A DNA stretch of 64,000 nt. Origin: a virus (lineage: Duplodnaviria > Caudoviricetes). The DNA lies in the IMG/VR virus record IMGVR_UViG_2706796186_000001, positions 128,001 through 192,000 of that record. One strand, written 5' to 3'. The notes under the pieces were generated by a model that was given only the letters and a program-made list of their open reading frames with translations, made no database searches and was not told the DNA's origin. The position numbers and the translations under genes are program-made. This document shows, in pieces, positions 7,511 through 37,224 of this stretch (within the stretch, counting starts at the first letter, position 1; every line of letters begins with the position of its first letter).

Positions 7511-8221
7511 TCAGGCGTTTAACAGTGGAATCTGCGTAATCGGTTGACTTAACGGCTGCGGTTCCCAAGTGACCGTTACAGCGTTAAATGCACGCTTGAT
7601 GTTCTGGTAGCGCGCATTCACACAATGGGCGTGTTTCACATCCCAACGTTCATGCTCAGGAATCGCGTTTTCAATCTGTTCACGGAAGAACAGATAGTTG
7701 CGATTGTAGTTCAGCGTGACATCCGAAATTGACGGGTAGCTGTACTGATGCGGGTTATCGTTCTTATCGGCATACGACGGCCAGCCGAAGTTCTTCACCG
7801 CTTCGTAAAACGAGTTGGCGAGGAATGATTCGACCTTCATCATTTCCATAATCCGCAAGAACATCAAATCCGCAAACGGCTTGTCCGTTGCCCGTGACAG
7901 ATTGCCCGCCGGAGTATCCGGGTAGGGTACTGGGGACGGGGCTTTCTGATACAGCAGGTCGTGGATACAGGCAGCTGCCGCCCAAGGGCCATCAGGGTGC
8001 AGAATCGGCTGTAAGGCAGCTGGGATACTCGCCAAGTCCGTGACGAAGCCCGCGGGGGCGGTGACATACATCAGCGTGTCAGGATGAATACCAGAACGGT
8101 ACACCATGTCATCCAAGCCCGGATGGTCACGGTACAATGCCCTCAGCGTAAACGGTACCCGGAAGTCGTCTGTCAGAATGAACCACTGCTTATCTAACAC
8201 TTTATACTTCAACTCGTTCAT
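7511..8221 (-). CDS. DUF1353 family protein
   Basis: PAGFVTDLASIP...AAACIHDLLY...ADLMFLRIM...YEAVKNFG are the characteristic DUF1353 motifs. Confidence 0.8.
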   Translation of the reverse strand: MNELKYKVLDKQWFILTDDFRVPFTLRALYRDHPGLDDMVYRSGIHPDTLMYVTAPAGFVTDLASIPAALQPILHPDGPWAAAACIHDLLYQKAPSPVPYPDTPAGNLSRATDKPFADLMFLRIMEMMKVESFLANSFYEAVKNFGWPSYADKNDNPHQYSYPSISDVTLNYNRNYLFFREQIENAIPEHERWDVKHAHCVNARYQNIKRAFNAVTVTWEPQPLSQPITQIPLLNA

Positions 8222-8353
8222 GAAAGTGCCACCTTAACCATACTGAGCACCACCATGCCTATAATCGACCCCCACAACACATACGCAGGTGGATCATCCT
8301 CGGTAAAGAATTTTGTCGGTACAGAATTGTTCATGGTGATGCCCTTATGGTTA

Positions 8354-8953
8354 TTATTTAGAACATACCCCTACCTTGATAGCGTAGTCGCCCATTTCAC
8401 GGTAGACGCGGTCATACCAACCGTAAGTGAACTCTTCGTTCTGTACACGCTTCTCGGAAATCTCGGTGTAGTAAGACACCTGATGGGAAGTGAGCGCGAA
8501 CATCAAACGGTTGAAGCCATCCAGACCACGGGCTTTCAGGAAACCTTCCAGCGCAGTCATAGTTGCAGGGCCGATACCACCGTCAGCAGAGATGTCGGCA
8601 TACAGTTTACCCTGACGGTTCAACACGTTCAGAATACGCTGAAGCGATTTGATGCAGTTTGCACGACCGGCGTTAATGCCGAAGTCGAACATACGGTCAG
8701 CCAAGAGCGGATTCCATGCGAGAATACGGTCAAGGCGCATACGGTCCCACCACCCTTTCTTGTAGATGTCGAGTGCCATCTGACGCGTCAGGTTACGCAT
8801 GTCGCCGGTGTAGCCGTTTTCACGCGCGGTAGCTTGTGTGATGCCGAAGTTGGTTGGGCCACCCAAGTCGTTCGGGTTGTTAACATAACCGGCTTCAATG
8901 TTAACTTTGGCCGCAATGATACCTTCCATACTCCAACGGTCTACAGTTGTCAT
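8354..8953 (-). CDS. glycoside hydrolase family 108 lysozyme (endolysin-like) with C-terminal peptidoglycan-binding domain
   Basis: EAGYVNNPNDLGGPTNFGIT catalytic motif; FDFGINAG; LQRILN..DGGIGPAT; FTYGWYDR. ATG 8953 with RBS gagga. Confidence 0.9.
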   Translation of the reverse strand: MTTVDRWSMEGIIAAKVNIEAGYVNNPNDLGGPTNFGITQATARENGYTGDMRNLTRQMALDIYKKGWWDRMRLDRILAWNPLLADRMFDFGINAGRANCIKSLQRILNVLNRQGKLYADISADGGIGPATMTALEGFLKARGLDGFNRLMFALTSHQVSYYTEISEKRVQNEEFTYGWYDRVYREMGDYAIKVGVCSK

Positions 8954-8995: not shown

Positions 8996-9034
8996 GAAAA
9001 AAAAGAAAAGCGACCCACCCCCGAAGGAGTGGGT
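8996..9034 (-). terminator. intrinsic terminator closing the radical SAM/Cys-rich operon
   Basis: Minus strand acccactcc-ttcg-ggggtgggt followed by a long T tract, just after the 9040 stop. Confidence 0.85.
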
Positions 9035-9039: not shown

Positions 9040-9696
9040 TTAGGCTACACCGTTATCCGCAGCAAGCTGCTTAACTGCGGTGAAGTCTTTTTGTTCCGTG
9101 AGGATACGGATGCGTTGTTTCAACACAGACATGACCATGTGCAGGTCATTGTCACGCGTGATGATTTCCGCATAGAGGGCTTTAACGTCCTCCACCGTCC
9201 ACGGCTCGATAGGCTCGTTGTTCAGCGTCATCCAGTACATCGGGTCAACCCCGGACTGCATGTAGCTTTGCATCGATTCGCGCGACTTCTCGTCAGCTTG
9301 GAACGTCTTGTCACGGAAGGTAATGGGTGCAAACCGTTCCGCGTTATACTTGTCGTTCAGTTTCGGATAAATCGCATTGACTTCCTGATAGAGGTAGTTC
9401 TCCGTCGAGGTCAGCGCGGTACGTACGTGGTCTAAATCAATCTCCAGCACGTCAGCAATAAACTCTTTGGTTTTCTTCATCAGGAATTCAATTTCAACCG
9501 GTGACAGGTCAAAGCCTTTGAGTTTCTCGCGGGCTTTCTTGTCACTCATACCGTTAATCAGATGGTAGTGCAGTAGCAGGCAGAACCCGATACGGTTTTC
9601 CATCTGGTCTTGGTATTCTTCCACGTAGTTACCGTAGCGGTCGATACGCGTGCCCCGTTCGAAATAACGGGCTTTTATTTCGTCGTTACTAAGCAT
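9040..9696 (-). CDS. DUF4376-like protein (putative tail-fibre assembly/accessory protein)
   Basis: C-terminal half ITFRDKTFQADEKSRESM...WMTLNNEPIEPWTVEDVKAL resembles the DUF4376 pattern (F-x-x-D-x-x-S ... W-x-T-x-x-N) common beside tail-fibre genes. Confidence 0.6.
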   Translation of the reverse strand: MLSNDEIKARYFERGTRIDRYGNYVEEYQDQMENRIGFCLLLHYHLINGMSDKKAREKLKGFDLSPVEIEFLMKKTKEFIADVLEIDLDHVRTALTSTENYLYQEVNAIYPKLNDKYNAERFAPITFRDKTFQADEKSRESMQSYMQSGVDPMYWMTLNNEPIEPWTVEDVKALYAEIITRDNDLHMVMSVLKQRIRILTEQKDFTAVKQLAADNGVA

Positions 9697-10232
9697 CCGG
9701 ATTCTCCTGCAATCCCAAGGTCAACCAGCAGACCGAAGTCAATGAACTGGAAATCATTTTCCAACTCTTCGCCCCAGAGCAGTTTGGCCTCTTCTGCTTC
9801 ATCACCCATCTCTTCCAGCGTCTTACGTGCCACTTCGAATTCGTGGTAGAACGCATCGGTCAGGTGTGTACCGCGTAATGCACGCACAGTCACACCAGGG
9901 AAGTTCAGGGCCAGTCCCACAACGTTGGTTGGGTCTGCATCACCGGTAGAACGGCGCAGTACCTGCAACTTGTGTTTTGGGAACGCCACCACACGTTTTT
10001 CGAAACCGGGATTACGTTTCTCGATTTCGACAACGGACTGGTGATCGTCTTCCACGCCCTGTAAAGGCAGGATGACATTCAGGCCATAACGGTTCAACAG
10101 ACGAATGGTGTCATCGTTGAAATCTTCACCCGGCACGATCGCATGGATGTTGTACAGCTTGTGTTTGCGAATGAACGCATCGACAAGGTGAACGTTACGC
10201 CGAGTAAAATTGTGAATCAGCAATGACTTCAT
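9675..10232 (-). CDS. hypothetical protein of the radical SAM operon
   Basis: 185-aa ORF overlapping both neighbours on the same strand; no family recognised. Confidence 0.7.
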   Translation of the reverse strand: MKSLLIHNFTRRNVHLVDAFIRKHKLYNIHAIVPGEDFNDDTIRLLNRYGLNVILPLQGVEDDHQSVVEIEKRNPGFEKRVVAFPKHKLQVLRRSTGDADPTNVVGLALNFPGVTVRALRGTHLTDAFYHEFEVARKTLEEMGDEAEEAKLLWGEELENDFQFIDFGLLVDLGIAGESGCLVTTK

Positions 10233-11541
10233 TCGAGGCTCCGAGTTCTAATTTAAGTTTATCTGCTTTCATGCGGTCACGCACGCAGCTCGCACAGTAG
10301 CACATGGATTTATCGTGCAGGTCGGCGACATTCGTGGTACCGGTTTTCTGATACCAGTATTCGGACACCAACAATTTCGCGGTCGTCCAACCACACTGGC
10401 GTCGCTCAGCATGGTACTCTTTACGCGCTTCCAGCTCGCCGTCACCGTTCTCGTAAGAAGCAGCCGCACAGCTACCGCACGAGTGTTTCATCGGGCAGCC
10501 TAAGCAGGTAGACGGGTAGTTGGTGTACTGCGTCTGAATTTCGTTCAGTAGTTTGTGACCGTCAATGTTCACAATCTCACGCCCACGCAGTTCTGCTACC
10601 GCTGAACGGGTGGTTACGGTTGACATGAAGCGGTTACAGCCGTAAATCTTACGGTCGAAGCCAAGACAGGTCATGTGGGTCAGCGTACCGCAGTAAGGAC
10701 GTACACGGTCTGGGTGCAGACGGGTTGCTTCATCGTCCAGCAACTTCTGACGCCAGTCCGGGTCCCATGTCGCCATGAAGTCCAGCCCATCAGGAATGAT
10801 GTGGGTCAGGATGTTACGTGGTGACTTGTGGTAGCCGTTGTCGACCCAGTAATCGATAACGTCAATCATCTGGTTTGCGATACCCAGAGCCATATCACGC
10901 GACAGAATGTCTTCGTACGTGACGTTACCGGAGATGGTACCACCGCCCGTTTCTTTAATCAGGTGAATCATGCTCTCGCCGTAACGAGGCAGGGTCTCAC
11001 CGGTAAAGGTGGCTTTGATACCGAGTTCTGCAATACCGACAGATTTCAGGTATTGGTAGCCGCGCATCGCCTGCTCGTACGAGCCTTCACGCGAAGTGGT
11101 GAAGATACGATAGCGGTCGTGTACTTCTGGCAGACCATCGATGGACACACCAATCGACAGACGGTCTTTCCAGCGTTCAATGATTTCTTTGCTGATAGGA
11201 CGGTCGAACAAGGTGCCGTTGGTAGAAATAGAGAATACGTACTGGCGGTTGTCGCGCGCCGCTAACTCTTCGGCTGTCTCAAAGACGGCTTTCAGAATCT
11301 TCGGCTGCATAAACGGCTCACCCCCGATGATGTCGATAATGATTTCGGCATCTTCGATGTGACGGTCGCGGTCAAAACACGCATGAATAAAATCGACAGC
11401 GTCATCCACTTTGTTGTTGCGCGGATACTTACGTTCGTAGCAATACGAACAGTCGAGATTACAAGACAGGTTAGTTACGACCTGATACGTGAGTGTGGGG
11501 CGCTGTTTACGCGTCTGCGATGAAGATCGTTCTTCACTCAT
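10195..11541 (-). CDS. radical SAM/SPASM-domain peptide maturase-like enzyme
   Basis: CNLDCSYC (CxxxCxxC), GGEP, STNG, SIDG, HDRYR. C-terminal SPASM-like Cys array (YCG..C..KIYGCNRF...CLGCPMKHSCGSC...C) plus an extra CYCASC. Confidence 0.92.
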   Translation of the reverse strand: MSEERSSSQTRKQRPTLTYQVVTNLSCNLDCSYCYERKYPRNNKVDDAVDFIHACFDRDRHIEDAEIIIDIIGGEPFMQPKILKAVFETAEELAARDNRQYVFSISTNGTLFDRPISKEIIERWKDRLSIGVSIDGLPEVHDRYRIFTTSREGSYEQAMRGYQYLKSVGIAELGIKATFTGETLPRYGESMIHLIKETGGGTISGNVTYEDILSRDMALGIANQMIDVIDYWVDNGYHKSPRNILTHIIPDGLDFMATWDPDWRQKLLDDEATRLHPDRVRPYCGTLTHMTCLGFDRKIYGCNRFMSTVTTRSAVAELRGREIVNIDGHKLLNEIQTQYTNYPSTCLGCPMKHSCGSCAAASYENGDGELEARKEYHAERRQCGWTTAKLLVSEYWYQKTGTTNVADLHDKSMCYCASCVRDRMKADKLKLELGASNEVIADSQFYSA

Positions 11542-12431
11542 TTGATTACCTCATTGCGATGTTTGCGAGCGTGGATCGTGCGATTGATGTAACGGTAGGC
11601 TTCTTGCCCAATGACTTTCGCCAGCATGTTACAACCGCTATCGATTTCCATCTCGACATCCATCGTGTAGCCGATAGACGCATCGGAGTCCAGACGAACC
11701 AGACCGCTGCACGCGTTGCACGACTGCTCAAAGAACTTGCTGATGGAGAACCCAGTTGAGCCATTGTTCATGACATTCAGGCGTTCAATCTGGTCTTCCA
11801 TTTTGTTGTAGCCGAACATGAAGTTCATCACCAAATCTTGGTTCAGAGGTTTCTTCATGCGGTTGTCCAACAGCAGCGTCATGTCTTTGAAGCCGTAGTG
11901 GTGGAGTGCGCGGTGTAAGTCCAGCAGGTCAGTGTGCCAATATTTATCAGCCAACTGCTCACGAGTCACCACGGCCCACGTATGGACGTTGTTCAGCGCA
12001 GCCATCACTTCGAAGGCTTCGAATGCACCATCTTCAACGACACGCCAGAGCGGACGTTCGCTCTTTTTGTATCCATCGAACGACACACAGATACGGTTAA
12101 ACTGTTGCAGCATCGGGAGATGTTCCAGACGCATTTTCAGACCGTTCGTGTACAGCTCGTGAGTGAGATGTGGATAACGGGCTTTGACTTCGGCCAGCAA
12201 TGGCTCAATCTTCCGGGTCGCCATTAATGGCTCACCACCCGTCCAGTTCATCCCTTGTAAAGTCGGGTACTTCTCCAGTTGTTCAAACAGCGCTTCACGC
12301 TGAATTTCCCGACCAACATCTTTTGTGTCCATGTAATACGCTCCGCCGCAGAAACTACAATCCAAATTACACTTGGACGTCGTCACTATCGACAGCTCGG
12401 TAGGGGGACGTATTTGTGGTGCATCGGTCAT
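11538..12431 (-). CDS. second radical SAM enzyme (short, with a truncated Cys-containing C-terminus)
   Basis: CNLDCSFC, TGGEP, YTNG, VSFDG; C-terminal CNAC...C. Stop overlaps the next start (ATGA). Confidence 0.9.
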   Translation of the reverse strand: MTDAPQIRPPTELSIVTTSKCNLDCSFCGGAYYMDTKDVGREIQREALFEQLEKYPTLQGMNWTGGEPLMATRKIEPLLAEVKARYPHLTHELYTNGLKMRLEHLPMLQQFNRICVSFDGYKKSERPLWRVVEDGAFEAFEVMAALNNVHTWAVVTREQLADKYWHTDLLDLHRALHHYGFKDMTLLLDNRMKKPLNQDLVMNFMFGYNKMEDQIERLNVMNNGSTGFSISKFFEQSCNACSGLVRLDSDASIGYTMDVEMEIDSGCNMLAKVIGQEAYRYINRTIHARKHRNEVIK

Positions 12432-12449: not shown

Positions 12450-13328
12450 TTAATAGATCGCGAAAAGGGGGTCGTCCTCAAACTTCGCGCCCACATCCAG
12501 AAGGAAATCGGAGTGGTAGGCATCGAGTATTTGATTCAGAACAGCCTGACGGTCGTTAATCCGTTTAAGATCATCGAGTGTCACGCTTCGCGACTTGATG
12601 TTTGAAACTGCCTTTTCTTCGTCAGCTGTTAAGGAAACCTTCGACAGAAGGAAACTTACCAGCTTGCTCAGGTCAGCCTCGGTACCCGGTGCTTCACCGT
12701 AACGCAATTGAACCAAGAACTGCATCCACGGTTTGCGGATACGGCGACTGATTTCATGTGGATCGGTAATCGCTTCGAACTGCCCATCTACCGCATTCCA
12801 GCGAAACTTGTAGCTATACGCCAGTAAGTCAGCCAGACAATGGATACCGAGCGTTTCATAACCTAAGATGTGATGGTATTTTTCCACACCTTTATATTCT
12901 TCCGTGCCGGTCGGTACTACGGTGTACCAGAACGGATTAGAAGACGGGTAGTCCCAGCTCCACTCGCGACGAACCATGGGAATGACGTCCAAATCCGCAA
13001 ACGGCGTGAAGATCATTTCCAAATCCATCGAGTGGTTCAGGACTGCATCAGTAAAGAAATACTTACCGTCAATCAGTCGGCCACTGGCGTTCAGCTCGCC
13101 TTCATTAAACTTCACATGCTGAACAGTGTGCTTACCGATGGAGTAGGTATTCTCTTCGGTGTACTGCTTACGTGTAATATCCCGCCCACGTACCTTAGGC
13201 CATTCGCCTGGCAGCATCGAGATAAGGCGTACTTCGTCAGCGATGTGTGCTTTCACACTGTCGTACGACGAAATGTGTAACGGGAAATTTTGCGTCGTGC
13301 GGTACGCCAAATGGAGGTCGTTCTTCAT
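12450..13328 (-). CDS. hypothetical protein of the radical SAM operon
   Basis: 292-aa ORF with RBS aagga, between the Cys-rich genes and the radical SAM genes. Confidence 0.75.
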   Translation of the reverse strand: MKNDLHLAYRTTQNFPLHISSYDSVKAHIADEVRLISMLPGEWPKVRGRDITRKQYTEENTYSIGKHTVQHVKFNEGELNASGRLIDGKYFFTDAVLNHSMDLEMIFTPFADLDVIPMVRREWSWDYPSSNPFWYTVVPTGTEEYKGVEKYHHILGYETLGIHCLADLLAYSYKFRWNAVDGQFEAITDPHEISRRIRKPWMQFLVQLRYGEAPGTEADLSKLVSFLLSKVSLTADEEKAVSNIKSRSVTLDDLKRINDRQAVLNQILDAYHSDFLLDVGAKFEDDPLFAIY

Positions 13329-13346: not shown

Positions 13347-13556
13347 TTATCGGTTACCCGCGCCGTAACTGCACCCACCACTGCACGACCAGCTACAGCT
13401 ACCGTTGCAGTTATAATGCGAGAGTGGAAGCCCAGCAAGGTTGTTGGTCGAACTGACCGTGCCGCGTGTGGCGATATAGTTATTGGCCTGTGCGGTCGTG
13501 ATGTAGCCTTCGACGTTCTGCACCCGATCGCGAATGTTTTTCAATGAGATTGCCAT
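13347..13556 (-). CDS. short Cys-rich CXXX-repeat protein C (putative radical SAM substrate, 4 Cys)
   Basis: RBS gagga. Leader MAISLKNIRDRVQNVE; core CNGSCSWSCSGGCSYG. Confidence 0.85.
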   Translation of the reverse strand: MAISLKNIRDRVQNVEGYITTAQANNYIATRGTVSSTNNLAGLPLSHYNCNGSCSWSCSGGCSYGAGNR

Positions 13557-13577
13557 AGGTCCTCACTCGATAGAGTT

Positions 13578-13970
13578 CTATCGACTGCCTGAACAGCCAG
13601 AGCATCCCGTACAACTTGAACTACAGGAACCGGAACAGTTACCGGAGCATGTACCCGAACAACCGGAGCACCCACCCGAACACGAACCAGAACATCCTGA
13701 GCACCCACTGGTACACCCAGCAGTACAGCTCGACGAACATGAGGAACCGCAGCCCCCTGATGCCGAACCGGAACAGCCACCTGAACAGCTAGAGCAACCC
13801 CAGCTACAGGTTCCGCCGCAATCGTAATGAATACGTCCTTGGCCGCCGAATAAGTCGACGTTATTGGTTGCCTTATTACGGATGTAGGTTTGTACCCCAC
13901 CTTCCGTTTTTAAGGAGTTCGCTTCGATCACTGCAATGCGATCCGCGATGTTTCGTAAGTTGATAGCCAT
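13578..13970 (-). CDS. Cys-rich CXXX/CXX-repeat protein B (putative radical SAM substrate, 20 Cys)
   Basis: RBS gggag. Leader MAINLRNIADRIAVIE; core CGGTCSWGCSSCSGG...CSSSCTGCSGCSGSR. Confidence 0.88.
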   Translation of the reverse strand: MAINLRNIADRIAVIEANSLKTEGGVQTYIRNKATNNVDLFGGQGRIHYDCGGTCSWGCSSCSGGCSGSASGGCGSSCSSSCTAGCTSGCSGCSGSCSGGCSGCSGTCSGNCSGSCSSSCTGCSGCSGSR

Positions 13971-13979
13971 TGTTTCTCC

Positions 13980-14369
13980 CTACTGTGGACCAGAGCAACC
14001 AGAGCAACCGGTGCAGCTGGAAGAACACGACCCGGCGCAACCACCGCCACACTTACCACTGCACGAAGACGCACAGGTACCTGAGCAACCTGAACAACCC
14101 GAACACCCACCGCCGCAGTTAGAAGAACAGCTACCCACGCACGTAGAAGTACAGGTTCCTGCACAGCTAGTACAGCTTGCAGAACACCCGTTAGAACACG
14201 ACCAGCTACAACTGCCGCCACAATCCAGACGGGAGGGAGACCACCCACTGAACGAGTCCGCAGCGTTGTAAGCTTTCGATGCAACCTGCCCGTCTACACG
14301 AGCCCCGGTAGCATAGTTTGCTTCCACATTGTTAACGCGGTCGCGTATGTTTTTCATTGAAATCGCCAT
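13980..14369 (-). CDS. Cys-rich CXXX/CXX-repeat protein A (putative radical SAM substrate, 21 Cys)
   Basis: RBS aagga. Leader MAISMKNIRDRVNNVE; core CGGSCSWSCSNG...CSSSCTGCSGCSGPQ. Confidence 0.88.
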   Translation of the reverse strand: MAISMKNIRDRVNNVEANYATGARVDGQVASKAYNAADSFSGWSPSRLDCGGSCSWSCSNGCSASCTSCAGTCTSTCVGSCSSNCGGGCSGCSGCSGTCASSCSGKCGGGCAGSCSSSCTGCSGCSGPQ

Positions 14370-14385
14370 ACGTTTCCTTTGTCAA

Positions 14386-14424
14386 TAAAAAAATGAGGAC
14401 GCTGCCATAATGACAGCACCTCAT
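14386..14424 (-). terminator. intrinsic terminator-like hairpin between the fibre genes and the Cys-rich operon
   Basis: Minus strand atgagg-tgctgtca-tta-tggcagcg-t-cctcat followed by a T run; TATG lies at the loop. Confidence 0.6.
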
Positions 14425-14434
14425 GTAATAAGTG

Positions 14435-15634
14435 TTATCGTGAACCCGCTTCGGCTTGTACGTCGTCGCGAGAAGTCAGGCTGCTGTTGACGTGTACTGC
14501 CGCCTGAACCACACCGCCGTACTGCTTGTGGAGATAGTTCGGGTGTGGGTTATCTGCGTTAACGTGGTTCTGGAGATTCTGCGACAGGGTGTTAATGGAG
14601 TTCTGCAATCCAGCAACTTGCTGTTTCAGTGCATTCAGCTGACCAGAGAGATCCTGAATCTGCTGCTGCGTATCGGAACCGGCGGATTCCAAATCACTGA
14701 TGCGCTGCTTGAGCCCATTGATGACTTGGTTCTGGTCATTGATCATCTTCTGGAGTTGTAACACCAGAGAGTTCAGGTCGGCCTGTTGTAACGCCGCCTT
14801 TTGGTAGTTCAATGCCACCGAATTCAGTTGGTCATTCCACGAACCGAGTGCACTGACCACCGCATCGATACGCGCACCGAGTGCTGTGTCCGCTGCTTTC
14901 AAATTACCGATGTCAGCGAGGACAGCGTTAATGGCAGTCTGAACCGTTTGAATCAGCGCGCGAATTTCGGTTTCAGTGAGACCGTTCGCCTGATGAATAT
15001 CCAGTGCGTGAACATTACCTTTGGCATCGATGTGCGATTGTAGCGCCGCCATCATCTGGGTTTGCATGTCAGACATGGCTGCCAGAATCTGCTGGAGCTG
15101 AACTTCGTTACCGGAGTTAATCGCATCGGTCATCAACGCGAGTTGCGTAATGATGTATTCGAAACCAAACAGGTCGCCGAGGTCTTTAAAGGCCGGAGCC
15201 GCTGCAAAGGTATCCGGGACATTACGCAGGTCAGCGAAGTCAACTTTGCGGTCTTCAAGGTTGGCATCAGCCAACGCCTGTTTAATCGCAGAGATAACCG
15301 CCGACTGTGGGCCACCGACAACCTGTGCAAGACAGACGATATCGGTTGGGATAGCCGGGTTAGTGACGACCACACCCATACAGATTTCGCGGTTCTTAGC
15401 AAGCTTCATGTACGCCGGATGGATGTAAATCAGCTCGTAGTCGGTACCGCGTTTATAAATGGTGTTGGGTTGATTGGCAGGCCGCATACGGAACGTATCC
15501 GCAAAGAACGGCCCTGCTGGGAAAGCGAACGCACGGTTGACCTTCCCCCCACCTAACACAACCGGGACATTGACCGCGTTACTGGACGCAGCCCCTGTCA
15601 GGTCAAGTGGGTATTGAAATAGAATATCTGGCAT
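14435..15634 (-). CDS. short tail-fibre/baseplate-attachment-like coiled-coil protein
   Basis: N-terminal YPLDLTG..GPFF..GTDYEL domain shared with the three giant fibres; long heptad region; fibre-type HVNADNPHPNY motif. ATG 15634 with RBS gggag. Confidence 0.7.
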   Translation of the reverse strand: MPDILFQYPLDLTGAASSNAVNVPVVLGGGKVNRAFAFPAGPFFADTFRMRPANQPNTIYKRGTDYELIYIHPAYMKLAKNREICMGVVVTNPAIPTDIVCLAQVVGGPQSAVISAIKQALADANLEDRKVDFADLRNVPDTFAAAPAFKDLGDLFGFEYIITQLALMTDAINSGNEVQLQQILAAMSDMQTQMMAALQSHIDAKGNVHALDIHQANGLTETEIRALIQTVQTAINAVLADIGNLKAADTALGARIDAVVSALGSWNDQLNSVALNYQKAALQQADLNSLVLQLQKMINDQNQVINGLKQRISDLESAGSDTQQQIQDLSGQLNALKQQVAGLQNSINTLSQNLQNHVNADNPHPNYLHKQYGGVVQAAVHVNSSLTSRDDVQAEAGSR

Positions 15635-15681: not shown

Positions 15682-18600
15682 TTACGGCAACTTAGGCATA
15701 AGATTGACCGTCAGTTTTGACGGGGTGACCGTTCCGCCGTAATAGTTGACCCCGTTGCCGATGTACAACGCGTTGTCGGCAATAAGCATGGGTATCGGTT
15801 GGCGGAAGATGACATCTCCATGAACAATCGGGAAATAATCATCGATGGAAACACCTGCTGGCATGGCGACTTTATAAACATCAAGCACACCACCAGTGAT
15901 ACGCCCCGCCGCACCCTGTACGTTCGTTATGGCACGAATGGCCACAGTAGCAGCATCGGAGATATAGAACACCGTCGCTGTGCCGTTATCCACGTTGGAG
16001 ACACTGAACGCAGCGAACGCGGTGGTCTGACCCCCGTTGATACCATTAAACACGAATGTGTTTTTGACCCCCACCTCGGCAGCAAGTGTGACCTCAGCCA
16101 GTGCAGAAGAAAACGTTGCAGAAACATCGAGGTTGGCGTTGGTACATCCAATGGTGCCGGAGCCCAAAGAGTAACCACTCTTCAATTTGATTTTCACCGT
16201 CGGGGTCGACGGGGTAATCTCCACAATCATTTTCCACGCAATCGAGATGACAGCCGACATCCCCGGAATACCCACCAAATACGCATTGTCTACATCAGAA
16301 GCCTGACCAAAGTTGGCACCCTTCATCGTGAACTTCTTGTAGTCTTTAGGCAAGGTAGCGACCGGCGCATCCCGCAGCAACTCGATAGGAACCTTGTGGC
16401 TTTGAGACGCGAAGACCGGGCCAATCTGCGACATATCCAGATACCCATCACCGGTAGCCGCCGGAGCAGAAAGGGGTTGCTTACGCAATAGCCCCAGTCG
16501 CGAAAGCCGCGCTTCACTGTCCACATTCACATCGTGGCTGTAGACCGTGGCGGTATGCTCCGCCAACTGTTTCAACTCGCCCAAGCGTTTCACTTTTGTG
16601 AACTCAGACGACAAGATACGCTGACTGTCGGTGACTACCGTCCCGATAAACAACCGGGTATCCGTATCGGGCATTTTCTGCGTCAAAAGCTGGTATTCCG
16701 GTTTGCCGTTCACCACCGCCGCGTGCATGTAGAACGTACGGTTTTGGTACGCACCGGGGAACAACGTCTTGAGGTTCTGGTTATACGCATCCAACGTGTA
16801 ATAGTCGGAACCAAACCGTAAGCTCTCAGACTCGGTGATGTACAGCTCCCACCCTTCTGCGGTTTTTACCCCAGCAACGATTGCAACATTCCCCGCAGGG
16901 GTGTAGTTTGTCACCCCTGCCGCAACAAAGTCGTTCGGTGGTGCGCTTGGGCCTGCGAAATAAGACGGTGAAATCACCTGCCCGTTTGACCGCAGCATTC
17001 GCTCCCCAACAAACGAAAGGATGGTAGCATAGTTGTAAAACGTGCTGCCGAGCACCCCCGCCTTCGTCGCCGTCAGCTTACCTCCGTTCAAACTGAAAAT
17101 CAGCTCAAGGTGGTACGCCGCGGATGACCCCACGACCTGCCGAATCATGAAGTTCGGCAAGTGCATGATGCCCGTACCGTCACCTTTCTCGTAGAAGATT
17201 GGTTGGCCCATTCTGCTGCTGTGCCCAGAATAGTTGGTATTCTGAATGAGTTGCAGGTTGCTGTACGTCGCGATGTTGGTGTATACAACGTCAGCTGTGG
17301 TCGTGACCAGCTGAACAACCCCGTTCACGACGCTCGGGTAGATTTGGAACGTAACATTCCCTAACCGCTTATTGCCGTTATAGAGTGCGTAGTACGACAT
17401 TTGTGCAATCCAAATCGGATTGGCATCAAGGGGTCGAATCGCCCACACGGAAAAGAGGAGGTTAATCGGGTTGGCAATGCTGTCCGCCACCTCACCTGCC
17501 GGTGCTGCCGCTTTTAAGGCCGCCGTTATCTTGTTCCATGTGTCGGAGGACAACGTAAGGGTATCGGCTTTTGGTACCGCACCCACGGCCTGGTACCGCT
17601 TCACACCGGGACCGTTCCAATACGCGCCGTTTAACTTACCCGACTGGAGCGTGGATGTCGCACACCACGTCATGTCTGCCAAAGCGTAGTAATCGTCAAC
17701 CGAGAAATTGCGGCGCACGTTACTCGGCCCTGCGCCCAAGTACGCGGGACCGTATGTTGTGTTTGGGTCTACCTCGACATACACCGCGCTGTTGGCGTTG
17801 GCGGGACTAAACAGATACGCATTATTGCCCAGATACACCGGATGGGATTGACCGACAGAATACACCGAGCCAATACCGCCCGTGAACTGCCAGTTCGCCA
17901 GAGAGGTGTAACCGCTTTTGTGGTCTCCTGCGATAAAGTCGTAGAAGTCCGCGTCCATTGTCGAGTGTGCTAACCCGTTGGGGAGGGTGTCCTGAGACTG
18001 ATCGTAAATAGACCATGCACGTTGGCCAACCCCTTGGAACACCCGCATGCGGTTATCAGCATTGCCGTACGGGAACCGAACTTTCCAGCCTGCCTCTTTG
18101 AGCTTTGTCCCAGTGGCAAGATACACATCGTCCGCATCGATTTTGAATGGGAAGATATCTGCATTATCCAGCGAGACCGTCAACGTATCCATGTCAATCT
18201 GGAACGAAGTCGCCCAAGTGAAACGGCCATACGAGTCATCAGGGCTCAACAATAACAGGGTGCTCAAAATACCTACCCTGGTCATGTTCTCGCGCTGCGC
18301 TACCGCATACGTCGCGATGTTGTGTGCGATGTTGCGCAGGTTACCCCAGCGTACTTTACCGGCCTCGGTCACATAGGTGGTGCCCTGTGTCGCAGGGTCG
18401 GTCGCATCGGTGTCTGTGTTAGCGCGCAGCAACACTGAGATACCGTTGACGCTGTTCCCCCCTTTGAGAGCAGCAGGGGTGTAAACCATCTTGTCCCCAC
18501 TGACTGACCCTACTAACGCATAGACACTGTACTGGGTATTGGTCAATTCCAGATGAAGAATGTAGACCTTCCCTTTATACACGATGGTTTGTTCGCGTGT

Positions 18601-20673
18601 CTGATCGCCGAGGTAGCCACTGACCGTGCCGTTCGCGTCGAACGAGGCAGGGAATTCACTCCGATACACCTGTTTGTGTTTGGTGTAGTTCAGTGTTCCT
18701 TCTAGCATGACTGTGTAGAAATATCCGTCGCTGCCTAAACAGACAAGTGCCGCATCGCCTGACGCAACCAGTGTGAGTAGCCGGACACCGGGATACTTAC
18801 TCATTCCCGCTGGGTGGTATGGGAACGACGTCTGCTGCTCCCCTGCAATTGACCCATCGTTGTTTACACGGGCATAGCCGTAGTAAATGCGATCGGTGTT
18901 CGGCAATCCGTCGTTTGCATTGCGTAACAGGTAAACGATGTCTCCTTCCTGCTTGACTGCCCCCAACCCTTTCCAGCTCAGCTGTTTCGCAAAACCGGCA
19001 AAATTCCCCACCGTTGGAATAGGCAGGAACCCACTGTTACCGTACGAGGCACCCCCAGTCGTCCACGACGGCAACAGACCGTCCAACACGTCTTTGTACG
19101 TATTAAGGCGCTGTTGTACGTTATAGCCCTGCTTTGACGTCACCACTTTGTTCGTGGTGGTATCAATCGCATCCCACAGTTGCAACAGACCTGCGTCCGT
19201 ATCAGACGCCGTTGGTACGCCCGTCAGGTCGGCAAACGTGTGCGTGTGGTTTGCCAGAGCCTTATTTGCCAACACCGCACGAATGGCGTTGGTCAACGGT
19301 TTCTCAGCAGGCGCGGTGTTGTTGATGTTACCCACACCTAAATCGGCGGTCGTTAAGGTAAGGGACTGTTTCGTACCGTCATCAATGAACTTCTTCCCGT
19401 TAATGGTGTACGTGTTGTCCACGTAATCATCCAGCGTCTTTTTCAGGACGTTAACAGCATACTGCGAAATCGCGGTACCCGAAGAAATATTTGCAGACAG
19501 GTTGGTGATAGCAAACAGCCCCGGCACTTTGTCAGTTGCCGTGGGCAGTTGCGCGTTCATGGTCAGTGGAGAAGACTGCTTCGCTGTACCGAATACCTTG
19601 ATGGTGTCGGTTGGAGAAAAGTAAGCGTTCCCCGGTAAGAGTTTTACTTCGGACAGGTACAACGAGACCATGTCCGGTGTGACCAGATATGCACCGTTAA
19701 AGATGGGTGCCACTGCGCCGTTGAGCACATAAGCCGTGTTCAGCCCCGAGCCCAACTCAACCCCCACACCCCGTTCGTTACTGTCTGCATCAGCAGTGAT
19801 GTTGATAGCACGGGTGGTGGTAATAAGGAACTTATCGCCTTGCAGGGTGATAACATGGCTCGAGTCGGCGGTACGGAATGTCAACGCACCGTTATTCAGC
19901 ACCTTGAGGCGACCACGCAGTTCACCAAGCACCACAGGCATCAGGGTATCGATGTGAGCTTGCTGAATGCCGTTTGCTTTCATGATAGCGACTAACTCAT
20001 CCAGCGTTTTACCGAATGCCTTCGTCGAGTCTACCGCTTTGGTCAGTACCTTTAACGCCCCAATCTCATCCGCAGTGTATTGGTGTGCGTTTTTGATACG
20101 ATGGTGGCTGTACATGTTGTCGTCGAAAATCTTTTTACCGTTGGCAAAAATCAAATCGGTGACCTCGGCGTACGCCACATCCATATCGCCTGCCCGCTTA
20201 ATCAAACCTTGACGGATATCATCCAGCGCTTTCACGACTTCATCGCGGAGCAGGGCTTCATCTAAGTTGGCAGGTGGGTCAATTGCAGGAACCACTGGTG
20301 CATAACGCATCAGTTCAGACCAGTCGGTGTTACGCGGGTCTTTGATGTCCTCTTTCACCAAGAACTTGCCAATCTCGGTCTGTGGTACGCGGTATTCGCG
20401 ACCAATCGAATAGATCGTGTAGTCAACAGAGGTGTCTCCGTTAATCAACATAATCCCGCCGTAGATTTGGTCTTTCATTGCGACAGCGGCTTCTTTATAA
20501 TAGTAGCCGAGGTAGTAATCCAGACCCTCAATGAGCTTCACGCCTGCGCTGTTTTTCAGCTCAAGCCCGGTACGGAAGAACGGCCCCTCAGGAGGGATGA
20601 CCACATTGTATTTGTTCGGATATGTGGTCGTCAGTAGCGTACCGGTAAATTTGGCTACGTTCGTGCTCGCCAT
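15682..20673 (-). CDS. giant tail fibre protein (1663 aa)
   Basis: GPFF..GLDY N-terminal domain; LPTAT..G, LGVGNINNT..KP and HTHTFADL fibre motifs; beta-rich distal domains. Confidence 0.8.
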   Translation of the reverse strand: MASTNVAKFTGTLLTTTYPNKYNVVIPPEGPFFRTGLELKNSAGVKLIEGLDYYLGYYYKEAAVAMKDQIYGGIMLINGDTSVDYTIYSIGREYRVPQTEIGKFLVKEDIKDPRNTDWSELMRYAPVVPAIDPPANLDEALLRDEVVKALDDIRQGLIKRAGDMDVAYAEVTDLIFANGKKIFDDNMYSHHRIKNAHQYTADEIGALKVLTKAVDSTKAFGKTLDELVAIMKANGIQQAHIDTLMPVVLGELRGRLKVLNNGALTFRTADSSHVITLQGDKFLITTTRAINITADADSNERGVGVELGSGLNTAYVLNGAVAPIFNGAYLVTPDMVSLYLSEVKLLPGNAYFSPTDTIKVFGTAKQSSPLTMNAQLPTATDKVPGLFAITNLSANISSGTAISQYAVNVLKKTLDDYVDNTYTINGKKFIDDGTKQSLTLTTADLGVGNINNTAPAEKPLTNAIRAVLANKALANHTHTFADLTGVPTASDTDAGLLQLWDAIDTTTNKVVTSKQGYNVQQRLNTYKDVLDGLLPSWTTGGASYGNSGFLPIPTVGNFAGFAKQLSWKGLGAVKQEGDIVYLLRNANDGLPNTDRIYYGYARVNNDGSIAGEQQTSFPYHPAGMSKYPGVRLLTLVASGDAALVCLGSDGYFYTVMLEGTLNYTKHKQVYRSEFPASFDANGTVSGYLGDQTREQTIVYKGKVYILHLELTNTQYSVYALVGSVSGDKMVYTPAALKGGNSVNGISVLLRANTDTDATDPATQGTTYVTEAGKVRWGNLRNIAHNIATYAVAQRENMTRVGILSTLLLLSPDDSYGRFTWATSFQIDMDTLTVSLDNADIFPFKIDADDVYLATGTKLKEAGWKVRFPYGNADNRMRVFQGVGQRAWSIYDQSQDTLPNGLAHSTMDADFYDFIAGDHKSGYTSLANWQFTGGIGSVYSVGQSHPVYLGNNAYLFSPANANSAVYVEVDPNTTYGPAYLGAGPSNVRRNFSVDDYYALADMTWCATSTLQSGKLNGAYWNGPGVKRYQAVGAVPKADTLTLSSDTWNKITAALKAAAPAGEVADSIANPINLLFSVWAIRPLDANPIWIAQMSYYALYNGNKRLGNVTFQIYPSVVNGVVQLVTTTADVVYTNIATYSNLQLIQNTNYSGHSSRMGQPIFYEKGDGTGIMHLPNFMIRQVVGSSAAYHLELIFSLNGGKLTATKAGVLGSTFYNYATILSFVGERMLRSNGQVISPSYFAGPSAPPNDFVAAGVTNYTPAGNVAIVAGVKTAEGWELYITESESLRFGSDYYTLDAYNQNLKTLFPGAYQNRTFYMHAAVVNGKPEYQLLTQKMPDTDTRLFIGTVVTDSQRILSSEFTKVKRLGELKQLAEHTATVYSHDVNVDSEARLSRLGLLRKQPLSAPAATGDGYLDMSQIGPVFASQSHKVPIELLRDAPVATLPKDYKKFTMKGANFGQASDVDNAYLVGIPGMSAVISIAWKMIVEITPSTPTVKIKLKSGYSLGSGTIGCTNANLDVSATFSSALAEVTLAAEVGVKNTFVFNGINGGQTTAFAAFSVSNVDNGTATVFYISDAATVAIRAITNVQGAAGRITGGVLDVYKVAMPAGVSIDDYFPIVHGDVIFRQPIPMLIADNALYIGNGVNYYGGTVTPSKLTVNLMPKLP

Positions 20674-30932: not shown

Positions 30933-31640
30933 ATGAGCAGAATCAATTACAACTTCGACTTTAAGCTGGGTGCTAAGTTATTAGAAGAGAACGTCCTTCG
31001 TGCCCCGAATTCCCACTGGCGGCTAAAGTTCGGTAAGCTCCTGTCCGAATCCGGGTTACGTGCGATTGCCTCACCGTACTACCAGATAGACGAACTTGTG
31101 TCGGTGGTGCCATGCGAAGACCGTGAGGGGGGTGCGCTAATTCTCGAACTCAACAACAACGAGTACCTCCGGCAGTTAGAGAACCACTACGCGAAAATGC
31201 TCATGACTGCGTACGATGTCACGGATAAGAAAGTCTCGGTTGGGAATATGCAATCCAAAGTCATTATCCGACAGCACGGCAACTCTAACACGGCTGTTGT
31301 GCTTGAGCTGTGGGTTAGCGGTAACATTAATGACGGGCACCCACAAGGCGTGAAGCCGTTTACGGAGTGCTTTGTGTTTGAAGCGTCTATGGAACGCGAT
31401 CCGTACCCGACCGGGACAACCGACTTTGGTACCGACGAAGAACGTATTCCTGATGTACAGGAGCGCAGCATCAACTCGCCGGTCTATCTGGTACAGGCCC
31501 AAAACGTGAAAACCATCTTTGGCGTGGGGGCAAAAGAAAACCCGGAACGCATTTACGTGATGGCCCGTTGGGCAGGTTGGAGTGAAGTGAAATTCTACGG
31601 CGGTCAGGTTCTCCTGATAGCGAAGCTGTCTATCGGTTAA
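30933..31640 (+). CDS. hypothetical protein, paralogue array member 1
   Basis: RBS gagg. C-terminal PYP..PVYLV..GW..GGQVLLI motif shared with the next two genes. Confidence 0.7.
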   Translation: MSRINYNFDFKLGAKLLEENVLRAPNSHWRLKFGKLLSESGLRAIASPYYQIDELVSVVPCEDREGGALILELNNNEYLRQLENHYAKMLMTAYDVTDKKVSVGNMQSKVIIRQHGNSNTAVVLELWVSGNINDGHPQGVKPFTECFVFEASMERDPYPTGTTDFGTDEERIPDVQERSINSPVYLVQAQNVKTIFGVGAKENPERIYVMARWAGWSEVKFYGGQVLLIAKLSIG

Positions 31641-31644
31641 CCTT

Positions 31645-31678
31645 GTGGGGCTTCGGCCCCACTCTGATTATATTTTTT
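31645..31678 (+). terminator. intrinsic terminator
   Basis: gtggggc-ttcg-gccccac followed by a T-rich tract. Confidence 0.7.
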
Positions 31679-31703
31679 CTCAGATATATATTACTTAGGT
31701 GAG
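31679..31703 (+). promoter_or_regulatory. putative virion-RNAP early promoter
   Basis: ctcagatatatattacttaggtgag contains the phiKZ early motif TATATTAC; near-identical copy at 34746. Confidence 0.75.
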
Positions 31704-31748
31704 ATTGCATTCGTAATCTTTAATCTATTGACTTTCGAGGAATTCATT

Positions 31749-32366
31749 ATGCCTAAAATTACCATGATGCACATCGCCCTTAATGCACTGCGCGGTACCC
31801 AGCGTATCGAGTCGTTAACTTATCCACTTTTGGACACCGCCGCTCGTATCTTCGGTACGGGAATGGTGTATCAACACGACTGGGTGGGTAACGACAAACG
31901 TGAAGAAGTGTACGACACCGACAGCGAACATTGCCGTCAACTTCGTGAACTACTTCGTACTGCCGCAGAAGAAACCGGACTGAATACGCTGCTGCCTAAC
32001 GGTAAGGTGACTGTCCATGTGTCAGATAGTAAGGACATGCCTGACTACGAACCCGTGATACATTTGGATTGTATTCGCGTCTCTGTAGTGGTTTATAACG
32101 ACACTGATACCGTGTCTTTTAATACCATCATGCGGCCTGCGGAAGGTGTTGAAGTGACAACACGCGAACTGGAATGGGATCGTAAACCGTTCCCTTGTCC
32201 GGGAGACGCCACCACTCAGCGCCCAGTTTTACTGTTAGAGCATCATGACCTCATCGCCATGACAACCACCGAAACCAGCTTTAATGAGTTCATCAAGACC
32301 GCCGTGGATAAAGGTTGGCAAAACATCCAACGCTACGGTCAGCAAATTGTATTAATCAAACACTAG
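31749..32366 (+). CDS. hypothetical protein, paralogue array member 2
   Basis: ATG 31749 with RBS gagga. PFP..RPVLLL..GW..GQQIVLI. Confidence 0.7.
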   Translation: MPKITMMHIALNALRGTQRIESLTYPLLDTAARIFGTGMVYQHDWVGNDKREEVYDTDSEHCRQLRELLRTAAEETGLNTLLPNGKVTVHVSDSKDMPDYEPVIHLDCIRVSVVVYNDTDTVSFNTIMRPAEGVEVTTRELEWDRKPFPCPGDATTQRPVLLLEHHDLIAMTTTETSFNEFIKTAVDKGWQNIQRYGQQIVLIKH

Positions 32367-32383
32367 ACTATCGAGGATTAACC

Positions 32384-32989
32384 ATGTGCCAATTTCCAGA
32401 TGTAAACGATATTCTCAACGACCTTGAACGGGGTGCGGATGAAGTAGAGTACGCGGAGATTGCCCGCCTGCTTCCGAATGACACTTCCGATTTGTACGAG
32501 GTGGTTGAGCCGCGTAACGTGTTGTCGGTGAAGATTATCCGTGCACAAAGCGCTGGGTTTTCAAAGAACCTGCTCGGTGGGTTGTACGAAGCGATAAGCC
32601 GTAACAAACTTATCAGCAGTGCGCAGCTCAAAGTCGAAGCCACGACGATGCGCATTCGCCGTTACCGTCGTACTGTGCGGGTGCCGGGGGTGTCACTGTA
32701 TTACAAACCCAACATCTTCCCGGATGATAAAGGGCCGATTGAGATTCACCTTGTGTTACGGGACGGGTGGGAAGATACGTGGTTGGCTGTGGAACATGAC
32801 AAGTTCCCTTGTGCCGACGACGTAACACCTAACGAGCCGATGCGTCTGCTGGGAGCCAATGAACTACGTGCCATTTGCAGTGCGTTGATTCCTCGTGAAC
32901 ACCACGCGAAAGTGGTGGCGGATTTAGCGGTACAGTACGGCTGGCGTCGCGGGGTTCCCGCGGGTAATCAAGTGTGCTTAATCGGATGA
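32384..32989 (+). CDS. hypothetical protein, paralogue array member 3
   Basis: ATG 32384 with RBS gagga. KFP..EPMRLL..GW..GNQVCLI. Confidence 0.7.
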   Translation: MCQFPDVNDILNDLERGADEVEYAEIARLLPNDTSDLYEVVEPRNVLSVKIIRAQSAGFSKNLLGGLYEAISRNKLISSAQLKVEATTMRIRRYRRTVRVPGVSLYYKPNIFPDDKGPIEIHLVLRDGWEDTWLAVEHDKFPCADDVTPNEPMRLLGANELRAICSALIPREHHAKVVADLAVQYGWRRGVPAGNQVCLIG

Positions 32990-33531
32990 AAAATAAAATG
33001 ATTGTAAAACAAATGAACAGCGGCGAAGTCATGTTCAATTACGGCAAAGAATTTCCAGCCGTGCAGAAGTTACCTATCGCCGGGGAATATATCGTCTTTG
33101 AGGACGACTATAAACCGGCTGTTATCTTCAAACATGCCACGATGGCCGCCTCGCGGGTTTTCCTGCTGGAGGCTATCTTCACCACCAAAAATGAATTGCC
33201 CGTTCGTGACCTGCATGCGTTTTGTCCCGGTGGGCCAAAGCAATTCGCGGTTATCTTTGTTCTTCCTCTTTCACTTACGGTCGTGGATAGAGAACCGTCG
33301 GGTTCTATTTGTGCCCCCGATGGCGAGAACGGATACAAAGGGATTAGCGATGCGTTGATTTTGACTGATGCGCACCACTTCTCGAATGACGATATTGACA
33401 AGATACTGAAAGGCGCGGACGGCCGTAATGTGGTGGTCTGCTATTCCAGTGACGTTTTACGTACAAAAGCGCTTCGCCATCTGGCGGAGCAACACAACTA
33501 TTGTGTAGCAAAACACATCTATTCATTCTAA
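32986..33531 (+). CDS. hypothetical protein (weak resemblance to a degenerate thymidine-kinase-like fold)
   Basis: ATGA coupling to the upstream gene. DALILTDAHHF..VVVCY resembles TK Walker B region, but there is no Walker A. Confidence 0.55.
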   Translation: MKNKMIVKQMNSGEVMFNYGKEFPAVQKLPIAGEYIVFEDDYKPAVIFKHATMAASRVFLLEAIFTTKNELPVRDLHAFCPGGPKQFAVIFVLPLSLTVVDREPSGSICAPDGENGYKGISDALILTDAHHFSNDDIDKILKGADGRNVVVCYSSDVLRTKALRHLAEQHNYCVAKHIYSF

Positions 33532-33541
33532 GGAGCAAGAC

Positions 33542-34105
33542 ATGCGCTATGAAGCGTTTCACATCTGCAAACCTTCTACCTTTATTGAGTCACTGAAAGC
33601 AATGGAGGGCACCACCCTCGTTGAGATGCGCCCGACGTTCTACACAGCGACTCGTGAAGGGGCGCAAAAGATTGCCAAGCAGTACGGCAGCGTGACAATC
33701 ATCCCGGTCACACTCGCTTTGTCACGTCCGTTCATTAATGCACCGGATGCGTCACGAATCACACTCGACTGGTTCTATGAGTTTCTGCCAGGTTATAAGG
33801 TGCTTGCGATCGCAGGTCGTTTTGAGCACCTTTTAGTCAACACCAGCCGCTGGCAGGAACTTGAAGCCAGTTATGGGACACCACTCACGCTGTCTTCCCT
33901 TTACGACCGAAGCCTTCAGGACTTCCTGACGTTACCTTTAGAAATCTGTGCATTAGCCGAAGACGGCGCGATACGGAACATGGTCTCGTCAATGGGGTAC
34001 GATGGTTTCATCTATGGCGGCAGTGGCGATGCAGAAGGGGAAGTGATTTACTATCCCCTGAACACCGCCGGGATTCGCTATGGCAGTGAAGAAATGGTGA
34101 GTTAA
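33542..34105 (+). CDS. putative ADP-ribosyltransferase-fold protein (ART-PolyVal-like)
   Basis: RBS aaggag. AFH...FYTAT..A...IPVTLAL.RPF...GYDGFIY...EVIYYPL pattern. Confidence 0.5.
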   Translation: MRYEAFHICKPSTFIESLKAMEGTTLVEMRPTFYTATREGAQKIAKQYGSVTIIPVTLALSRPFINAPDASRITLDWFYEFLPGYKVLAIAGRFEHLLVNTSRWQELEASYGTPLTLSSLYDRSLQDFLTLPLEICALAEDGAIRNMVSSMGYDGFIYGGSGDAEGEVIYYPLNTAGIRYGSEEMVS

Positions 34106-34109
34106 GTCG

Positions 34110-34133
34110 CGGGGACGTTGTCCCCGATTTTTT
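34110..34133 (+). terminator. intrinsic terminator
   Basis: cggggac-gtt-gtccccg followed by T6. Confidence 0.7.
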
Positions 34134-34165
34134 ACAACAGCAATCTATATTTTTAGGATAACATC

Positions 34166-34738: not shown

Positions 34739-34745
34739 AAATAAT

Positions 34746-34770
34746 CTCAGATATATATTACCTAGGTGAG
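34746..34770 (+). promoter_or_regulatory. putative virion-RNAP early promoter
   Basis: ctcagatatatattacctaggtgag, one mismatch to the 31679 copy. Confidence 0.75.
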
Positions 34771-34824
34771 AGTTAGCTATTAACTCTTGCCTTTCTTTCT
34801 TTTTATCACTTACAGGATAACATC

Positions 34825-35289: not shown

Positions 35290-35347
35290 TTCCTTGTGGT
35301 GGCCCTCGCGGTCGCCGCATCCTTAACTTTTTTAAGAGAATGAAAAA

Positions 35348-35731: not shown

Positions 35732-35735
35732 TATC

Positions 35736-36137: not shown

Positions 36138-36147
36138 GGAAAGTCAC

Positions 36148-37166: not shown

Positions 37167-37171
37167 GTCGC

Positions 37172-37205: not shown

Positions 37206-37224
37206 GCCCAAAAAAGGAACCATT

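Follow-up and report, generated by a model that had tools for sequence, protein, structure and literature searches.

Three cysteine-ladder proteins encoded beside radical SAM genes in an SPN3US-like jumbo phage are candidate small tail-fibre components

The stretch of DNA analysed here, termed the window, comprises 64,000 nucleotides (positions 128,001 to 192,000) of the IMG/VR virus record IMGVR_UViG_2706796186_000001 and is, by its sequence, an SPN3US-like jumbo phage. Three adjacent genes on the minus strand, designated A, B and C, lie between a gene for a 399-residue coiled-coil fibre and a set of genes that includes two radical S-adenosylmethionine (SAM) enzymes. Judged from sequence comparisons, the A, B and C proteins are on balance better viewed as small structural proteins of the tail-fibre type, in which an enzyme-modified cysteine ladder would be presented by a trimer docked on the 399-residue fibre, than as precursors of released peptides.

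Gene A (13980..14369, minus strand) is an open reading frame (ORF) with a ribosome-binding site that encodes 129 amino acids, comprising a 49-residue N-terminal segment of the fibre type and an 80-residue ladder in which cysteine recurs at each third or fourth residue. Gene B (13578..13970, minus strand) encodes 130 amino acids with a 50-residue N-terminal segment and an 80-residue ladder, and gene C (13347..13556, minus strand) specifies 69 amino acids that consist of a 49-residue N-terminal segment, a CxGxCSW motif and a short tail. All three belong to phrog_6085 (E 1e-48 for A). The A and B proteins contain ~20 cysteines each with a spacing that mostly is four and sometimes three, and so resemble the adjacent targets, with cysteine at each fourth residue, of the CXXX-repeat maturase system. 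The N-terminal segments, here called leaders, all terminate at the aligned CxGxCSW motif, and residues Y47, C49, C53, S54 and W55 are invariant across 20 C-type proteins. Each of the three types has conserved orthologues in SPN3US, Stratton, CR5 and metagenomic relatives, and the whole genome record of 240,761 bp includes exactly three copies of this type. None of the three proteins matched NCBIfam (E ≤ 0.01) or Pfam (E ≤ 10) models, to which low-complexity filtering may contribute.

A previous sequence-only reading of this DNA proposed that the leaders are retained, trimerising tail-fibre segments with a heptad-like start. The start is as described: each leader opens with MAIS or MAIN and possesses the pattern R-h-x-x-h-E, where h is hydrophobic, at residues 11–16 (RVNNVE, RIAVIE and RVQNVE in A, B and C, respectively). 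The profile alignment places the leaders at 14223..14369 in A, where MAIS-x6-R-h-x-x-h-E occupies residues 1–16, at 13821..13970 in B and at 13410..13556 in C, all on the minus strand. In PMC6173795, which cites Kammerer 2005, R-h-x-x-h-E is given as a trimerisation motif of short coiled coils. AlphaFold2 modelling of a C-type protein predicted helices at residues 4–15 and 20–29 with block-mean predicted local distance difference test (pLDDT) values of 76–87 over residues 1–30 and 80–87 over residues 1–20. The R-h-x-x-h-E pattern falls in heptad register and mostly within the first of these predicted helices.

The leaders have relatives among fibre proteins outside the family. A leader profile (A3) of 49 columns built from 19 leaders was searched against 1.84 billion proteins. 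The family members that it retrieved invariably carry the leader at the N-terminus, and only a few outsiders matched (P0025, P0035, P0037 and P0033). Against PDB sequences the profile gave chance-level matches only. The most informative of these is P0037, which is encoded on a 250-kb contig (L023) of an unrelated, AT-rich jumbo phage with 33% G+C. At least 15 adjacent small proteins (108–172 amino acids) of this phage begin with MAISL followed by R11, a hydrophobic residue at position 15 and E16, and the A3 profile matches 15 of the 55 ORFs of the contig. The first 17 residues are common to the A, B and C leaders and the L023 proteins, with M1, A2, I3, S4, R11, hydrophobic 15 and E16 invariant. 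The C-terminal parts of the L023 proteins are tail-fibre tips that match Pfam families Gp53-like_C and Collar and the C-terminal ends of tail-fibre PHROGs; A, B and C instead have the cysteine ladder where the L023 proteins have a recognised tip domain. In the reciprocal search, of the 409 window ORFs a profile of the first 22 columns of the L023 proteins identified C, A and B alone (E 2.6e-6, 9.7e-6 and 6e-3, respectively). The tandem array, in which a single 17-residue N-terminus precedes diverse tip domains in at least 15 genes (L023 4131–12594), has the appearance of a repertoire of exchangeable receptor-binding tips, and no match to an array protein was detected among isolate phages.

Two further outside matches are fibrous phage structural proteins. 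P0025 has 10 units (E 6e-13) which align with leader residues 5–30, and P0035, which is located beside a Peptidase_S74 fibre, has five units (E 6e-5) which align with residues 18–48; P0035 had no match in the Protein Data Bank (PDB). One other protein, P0031, with an A-type head joined to unrelated-looking sequence, was judged by eye to be probably an assembly chimera and was not used.

Two fusions bear on whether the leader remains attached. In a sister lineage represented by a 222-kb contig (L018), the C protein is 210 amino acids long and consists of the leader and CSW motif followed by a ~140-residue beta-rich domain encoded at lower G+C content. Four sequence variants obtained from different samples all keep the reading frame across the fusion, and the extension itself lacks a start codon. 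AlphaFold2 modelled the 210-residue protein with a pLDDT of 51, and searches of 5.8 billion proteins, of isolate phages and of the ESM Atlas yielded no homologue of the additional domain. The fusion junction at the 3′ end of gene C (L018 8001–8633) includes a run of 11 G (poly-G 8190–8215). This tract determines whether C stops at 68 amino acids or is read on into the 140-residue domain, and its length varies among assemblies of the lineage, which is either a sequencing artefact or the mark of a genuine slippery or phase-variable site.

The second fusion was found among IMG/VR relatives of the radical SAM enzyme, on a P2-like contig (L162). The gene order there is Baseplate_J, Tail_P2_I, a 384-residue PF12571 tail fibre (E 1.8e-40), a 250-residue protein, a radical SAM/SPASM enzyme, a short radical SAM enzyme, DUF1353 and the tail sheath. 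The 384-residue tail fibre ends in a cysteine ladder (CNGCSGSCSG...), and the radical SAM/SPASM enzyme is 31% identical over its full length (residues 5–396) to that of the window. Thus, in both the window and L162 a C-terminal cysteine ladder is followed directly by a homologous radical SAM pair. A 340-residue shaft cannot be a disposable leader, so that in the L162 phage at least the sequence preceding the ladder has a structural role. Unlike the L162 fibre, A, B and C have only the ~50-residue fibre-like segment before the ladder and no fibre shaft in the same polypeptide; any shaft that they have would be encoded separately. Two other proteins encoded near relatives of the radical SAM enzyme, L168 (1376 amino acids) and L164 (448 amino acids), have cysteine-rich C-terminal stretches and are not identifiable as fibres. 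A DNA pattern scan of IMG/VR for seven cysteine codons at a spacing of four returned low-complexity junk, with a radical SAM neighbour at 0 of 80 loci. Overall, the module shared with L023, the fibrous-repeat matches, the C fusion and the L162 fibre make it most likely that the leader is a retained trimerising or attachment piece, in keeping with the fibre-type, probably retained segment that had been proposed.

Downstream of gene C on the minus strand are genes for a 292-residue protein (12450..13328; phrog_8030), a short radical SAM enzyme of 297 residues (11538..12431; PF04055, E 2e-11, with NCBIfam matches), a radical SAM/SPASM enzyme of 448 residues (10195..11541; PF04055, E 4.9e-15), a 185-residue accessory protein homologous to SPN3US gp162 (9675..10232; phrog_7988) and, last in the cassette, a DUF4376 protein of 218 residues (9040..9696; PF14301, E 7e-10) with weak matches to tail-fibre PHROGs. 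Two terminator-like hairpins (14420–14398 and 9034–9013) bracket this stretch of eight genes from A to DUF4376. The former, a hairpin of 10 pairs with a T-run (14398..14420, minus strand; tail CTCATTTTTT), separates the fibre gene from gene A, and the latter (9013..9034, minus strand) closes the cassette. The triad and the entire cassette are maintained in every relative examined. The 448-residue enzyme has the CX3CX2C motif CNLDCSYC (residues 27–34) and a C-terminal SPASM-type cysteine cluster (CLGCPMKHSCGSC). Its best NCBIfam matches are TIGR04115, the CXXX-repeat maturase (E 1.6e-36), and PapB (E 3.6e-36), both under the cut-offs; the TIGR04115 score of 126.6 bits is sub-threshold against a curated cut-off of 350 even though it is the best match. 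SCIFF and CcpM are further named relatives of the radical SAM enzymes, with TIGR03906 matching the 448-residue enzyme at E 3.4e-18. The 292-residue protein was modelled confidently by AlphaFold2 (pLDDT 79.8; predicted template modelling score 0.74). It produced no fold match in the PDB (best Foldseek E 0.04; VIA Z ≤ 4.6), no sequence match there and no significant hhalign alignment with the 250-residue L162 protein, and the model may represent a new fold. The protein may serve as a chaperone, a leader binder or a protease. No peptidase, RiPP recognition element (RRE; RiPP, ribosomally synthesized and post-translationally modified peptide) or transporter domain was detected in the proteins of the eight cassette genes. 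The absence of a double-glycine cleavage site ahead of the cores, as the sequence-only reading had stated, also was upheld: B has a GG pair eight residues before the first cysteine, which is not kept in orthologues.

These features suggest the following scheme. Residues 1–17 of the leader (MAIS-x6-R-h-x-x-h-E) would form a short three-stranded coiled coil, with residues 18–49 resembling one unit of a fibrous repeat; in other phages the 17-residue piece would be the common N-terminal end of interchangeable fibre-tip proteins. The ~50-residue segment would stay on the protein and the cysteine ladder would replace a globular tip domain. In the cytoplasm the ladder would be modified by the two radical SAM enzymes, aided by the 292-residue, 185-residue and DUF4376 proteins, with thioether cross-links as the most likely product, and the enzymes and helpers would remain outside the virion. 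The three paralogues, with equal-length leaders and aligned CxGxCSW motifs, probably trimerise, either as a 1:1:1 heterotrimer or as three homotrimers. A narrower proposal, that A, B and C assemble as a 1:1:1 heterotrimer which is stapled by radical SAM thioether cross-links and caps the gp167-type fibre, and that MAIS...R-h-x-x-h-E serves unrelated jumbo phages as a portable tip-docking tag, is advanced tentatively and is rather doubtful in this complete form; such a cap would be the first virion appendage matured by RiPP-type chemistry.

The 399-residue fibre gene (14435..15634, minus strand; phrog_2163, E 1.5e-110) is homologous to SPN3US gp167, and a TTG start at 15640 also is possible. 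The gene had been described as a short fibre with an attachment domain, a long coiled coil and an H..NPH..Y motif. This description holds, as the protein has a phiKZ-type virion or fibre N-terminal domain, a coiled coil at ~200–376 and the sequence H..ADNPHPNY near the end. Its last ~40 residues (14438..14560, minus strand) are the candidate docking surface and show a mean pairwise identity of 0.69, the highest in the protein, compared with 0.34–0.62 elsewhere. The distal part of the giant fibre instead is the least conserved region of that protein (0.14–0.28). A conserved fibre tip set against a variable giant-fibre end is more easily reconciled with a protein-protein interface than with receptor binding at the tip. 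A search with the C-terminal tip (residues 340–401) matched fibres of the same clade only. The order fibre-A-B-C is fixed in every relative examined. The homologous fibre of Vibrio phage pVa-21 shares 31% identity over residues 8–334 and then has a C-terminal head of its own; a Phage_tail_APC chaperone gene follows, and A, B, C and radical SAM genes are absent. The fixed synteny, the conserved fibre tip and the contrast with pVa-21 favour docking, and the C-terminal tip of the 399-residue fibre is the most likely seat of a putative A/B/C trimer. The gp167-type fibre is 399–400 residues in nearly all of the relatives listed (379 and 395 residues in two), and the coiled coil is only 34–55% identical among them. 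This near-constant length despite divergence of the coiled coil implies that fibre length seems to be under strong constraint.

Several observations weigh against the view that A, B and C are structural proteins with a retained, docked leader. The virion proteomics of SPN3US could not have registered them, as A and C lack annotation and B is annotated in the wrong frame (gp166). The 49-column leader profile matched no window ORF beyond A, B and C, and so none of the fibres including that of 399 residues. The R and E of the motif are substituted in the most distant relatives (L004 and L006). A conserved helical leader is also the form that a RiPP recognition sequence could take. Single repeats of P0025 and P0035 score weakly (6–17 bits) with large compositional bias, and only the summed scores are significant; the leader-profile match to the Fn3 repeats of P0033 was judged compositional or chance. 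The 292-residue protein may be a protease or a leader-binding factor, since its model resembles no recognised fold. The L162 shaft is not homologous to the 399-residue fibre, so that the comparison between a fused and a split arrangement is by analogy only. The terminator-like hairpin between the fibre gene and gene A counts specifically against docking.

Part of the link to the giant fibres of the window that the sequence-only reading had drawn likewise was not sustained. The strings on which it was founded are present, both in the leaders (KAYNAADSFSG at A 33–43, KATNNVDLFGG at B 33–43 and VSSTNNLAG at C 34–42) and in the giant fibres (KAVDSTKAFG at residue 212 of the 1663-residue fibre and IADDATLVYG at residue 221 of the 1011-residue fibre), but the leader profile matches neither giant fibre. 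When written as a regular expression, the fibre motif as proposed, A-x-(N/D)-(A/S)-x-x-(L/F)-x-G, matches B only. Homology of the leaders with the giant fibres or with the 399-residue fibre was rejected because the leader profile is blank in these proteins, and the link to the giant fibres thus is a short-motif resemblance only. In SPN3US virions, gp167 and gp168–170 were detected and gp161–166 were not (PMC5694885 supplement), and the absence of gp161–166 fits enzymes and helpers that stay outside the particle.

Three other explanations were weighed against docking of structural A, B and C proteins on the 399-residue fibre. The proteins may be structural with a retained trimerising head but attached at another site, for example the baseplate or a giant fibre of the gp168–170 type, or they may form an independent short appendage. 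All of the evidence for a fibre-type head applies equally to this arrangement, and the hairpin between the fibre gene and gene A favours it. The leader profile is neither similar to nor an obvious complement of the 399-residue fibre, and the L023 tip proteins adjoin Peptidase_S74 fibres and not a gp167-like fibre. Nevertheless, the invariant fibre-A-B-C order, the location of the strongest conservation at the C-terminal tip of the 399-residue fibre and the self-contained head that replaces the cassette in pVa-21 all point to the adjacent fibre as the partner, and attachment elsewhere is considered unlikely. The proteins alternatively may act as transient devices that register or nucleate fibre trimerisation and then are discarded, so that the mature virion lacks them. 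A C-terminal registration element or a chaperone is a common requirement of phage fibres, as with the T4 foldon and Peptidase_S74 domains, and the cassette occupies the slot of a fibre chaperone in pVa-21 and P2-like phages. The failure to detect other cassette proteins in SPN3US virions also agrees with a transient role. The L162 ladder is an integral part of the fibre polypeptide, however, and neither a Peptidase_S74 nor another self-cleaving domain was detected there. L023 proteins with the same head bear bona fide receptor-binding-type tip domains, and a scaffold that is thrown away would have little use for the domain added behind C in the L018 lineage. Among the explanations considered, this one is accorded the smallest chance.

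The remaining alternative is a classical RiPP pathway in which the ~50-residue leader is solely a recognition sequence for the radical SAM enzymes and is cut off, with cross-linked cores that are bioactive or metal-binding being freed at lysis. The leader-plus-core layout beside two radical SAM enzymes, the conserved and helical nature of the leader and the best named relatives of the enzymes, which are peptide maturases (TIGR04115, PapB, SCIFF and CcpM), all are as anticipated for such a pathway, and a protease or leader-binding factor could be among the two accessory proteins. Set against this, domain searches of the cassette revealed no protease, RRE or transporter and no conserved cleavage motif precedes the first cysteine. 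The extreme N-terminus (MAIS) is conserved and common to tail-fibre tip proteins, C is fused to a 140-residue domain in the L018 lineage and a true tail fibre of 384 residues in L162 ends in the same type of ladder. Moreover, the cassette is embedded in a fibre module with a DUF4376 gene as its last member. A released peptide therefore is judged distinctly improbable, and a structural role with docking on the 399-residue fibre is preferred.

The cassette can be compared with several known systems. As in the CXXX-repeat system (TIGR04115), a radical SAM/SPASM enzyme adjoins small proteins with cysteine at approximately each fourth residue. The cassette differs in the sub-cut-off enzyme score, the failure of A, B and C to match any target model, the presence of two radical SAM enzymes, the location in a tail-fibre module and the fibre-type N-terminus of the substrates. 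PapB, the second-best match, acts in the PapA/PapB (freyrasin) ranthipeptide system, in which PapA has CX3D/E units, a cleaved leader and a free peptide product. The repeated Cys-x3 units, as presumed thioether sites, are shared, whereas the ladders here consist of cysteine, serine, glycine and threonine with almost no acidic residues, and their chemistry is predicted. QhpD is a radical SAM/SPASM enzyme that introduces thioether cross-links into the small cysteine-containing polypeptide QhpC, which then becomes a structural subunit of a larger complex. In that case, quinohemoprotein amine dehydrogenase, the product is an enzyme subunit with few cross-links from which the leader is removed, whereas A and B would be virion parts with 20-cysteine ladders. 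The tip-only proteins of L023 share the 17-residue N-terminus, the small size, the multiple paralogues and the fibre module, but have globular distal tip domains, and the 15 kb examined showed no radical SAM genes. In the split fibres of T-even and P2-like phages (T4 gp36/gp37, gp38-type adhesins and P2 H/G), the N-terminus of a separate distal protein docks on the C-terminus of a trimeric shaft, and chaperone genes adjoin. The P2-type fibre (PF12571) of L162 bears the ladder itself, and no sequence similarity to gp36, gp37 or gp38 was found. Radical SAM maturation is not known for any of these split or capped fibres, and a literature search found no paper on virion fibres matured by radical SAM enzymes.

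If the assignment of A, B and C to the fibre is correct, radical SAM cross-linking, which occurs in peptide natural products and in a small number of enzyme subunits, also would build part of a virus particle. A fibre assembled in the cytoplasm thereby would gain covalent staples that require no disulfides. The 17-residue N-terminal tag then would mark fibre-attachment pieces in very different jumbo phages and would assist in the annotation of the numerous unexplained small genes in fibre modules. That the three genes are missing or mis-framed in most relatives as well as in the model phage SPN3US is an annotation gap. In SPN3US (L003 6501–7530; NC_027402 143191–144220, minus strand), the correct ORFs are A 143828–144220, B 143413–143817 and C 143191–143397; A and C have no annotation there, and the ORF annotated as gp166 overlies B in the wrong frame. 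In pEa_SNUABM_43 (L001 15748–16770), two ORFs on the opposite strand are annotated where A and B lie, and in most isolate records no feature is annotated under the three genes.

The region is 96–97% identical to Salmonella phage pSal-SNUABM-04 and Erwinia phage pEa_SNUABM_43 (Machinavirus). Upstream of A on the minus strand, three giant fibre paralogues (homologues of gp170, gp169 and gp168, in that order) precede the 399-residue fibre. The gp168 homologue (15682..20673, minus strand; PMC5694885) is 1663 residues long. In two IMG/VR relatives (L015 and L016, 2365–3365), an insert of ~1 kb separates genes A and B. A DUF1353 protein is encoded near the radical SAM cassette in the window (7511–8221, minus strand) and likewise in L004, L006 and L018, and another (8065–8430) comes directly after the radical SAM genes of L162, the unrelated P2-like contig. 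The recurrence of DUF1353 next to the cassette in both jumbo phages and the P2-like contig suggests that this protein belongs to the system. Elsewhere in the window (30933–37800, plus strand), ~12 co-oriented ORFs of 127–235 amino acids possibly correspond to the virion proteins of SPN3US 'paralog family B'.

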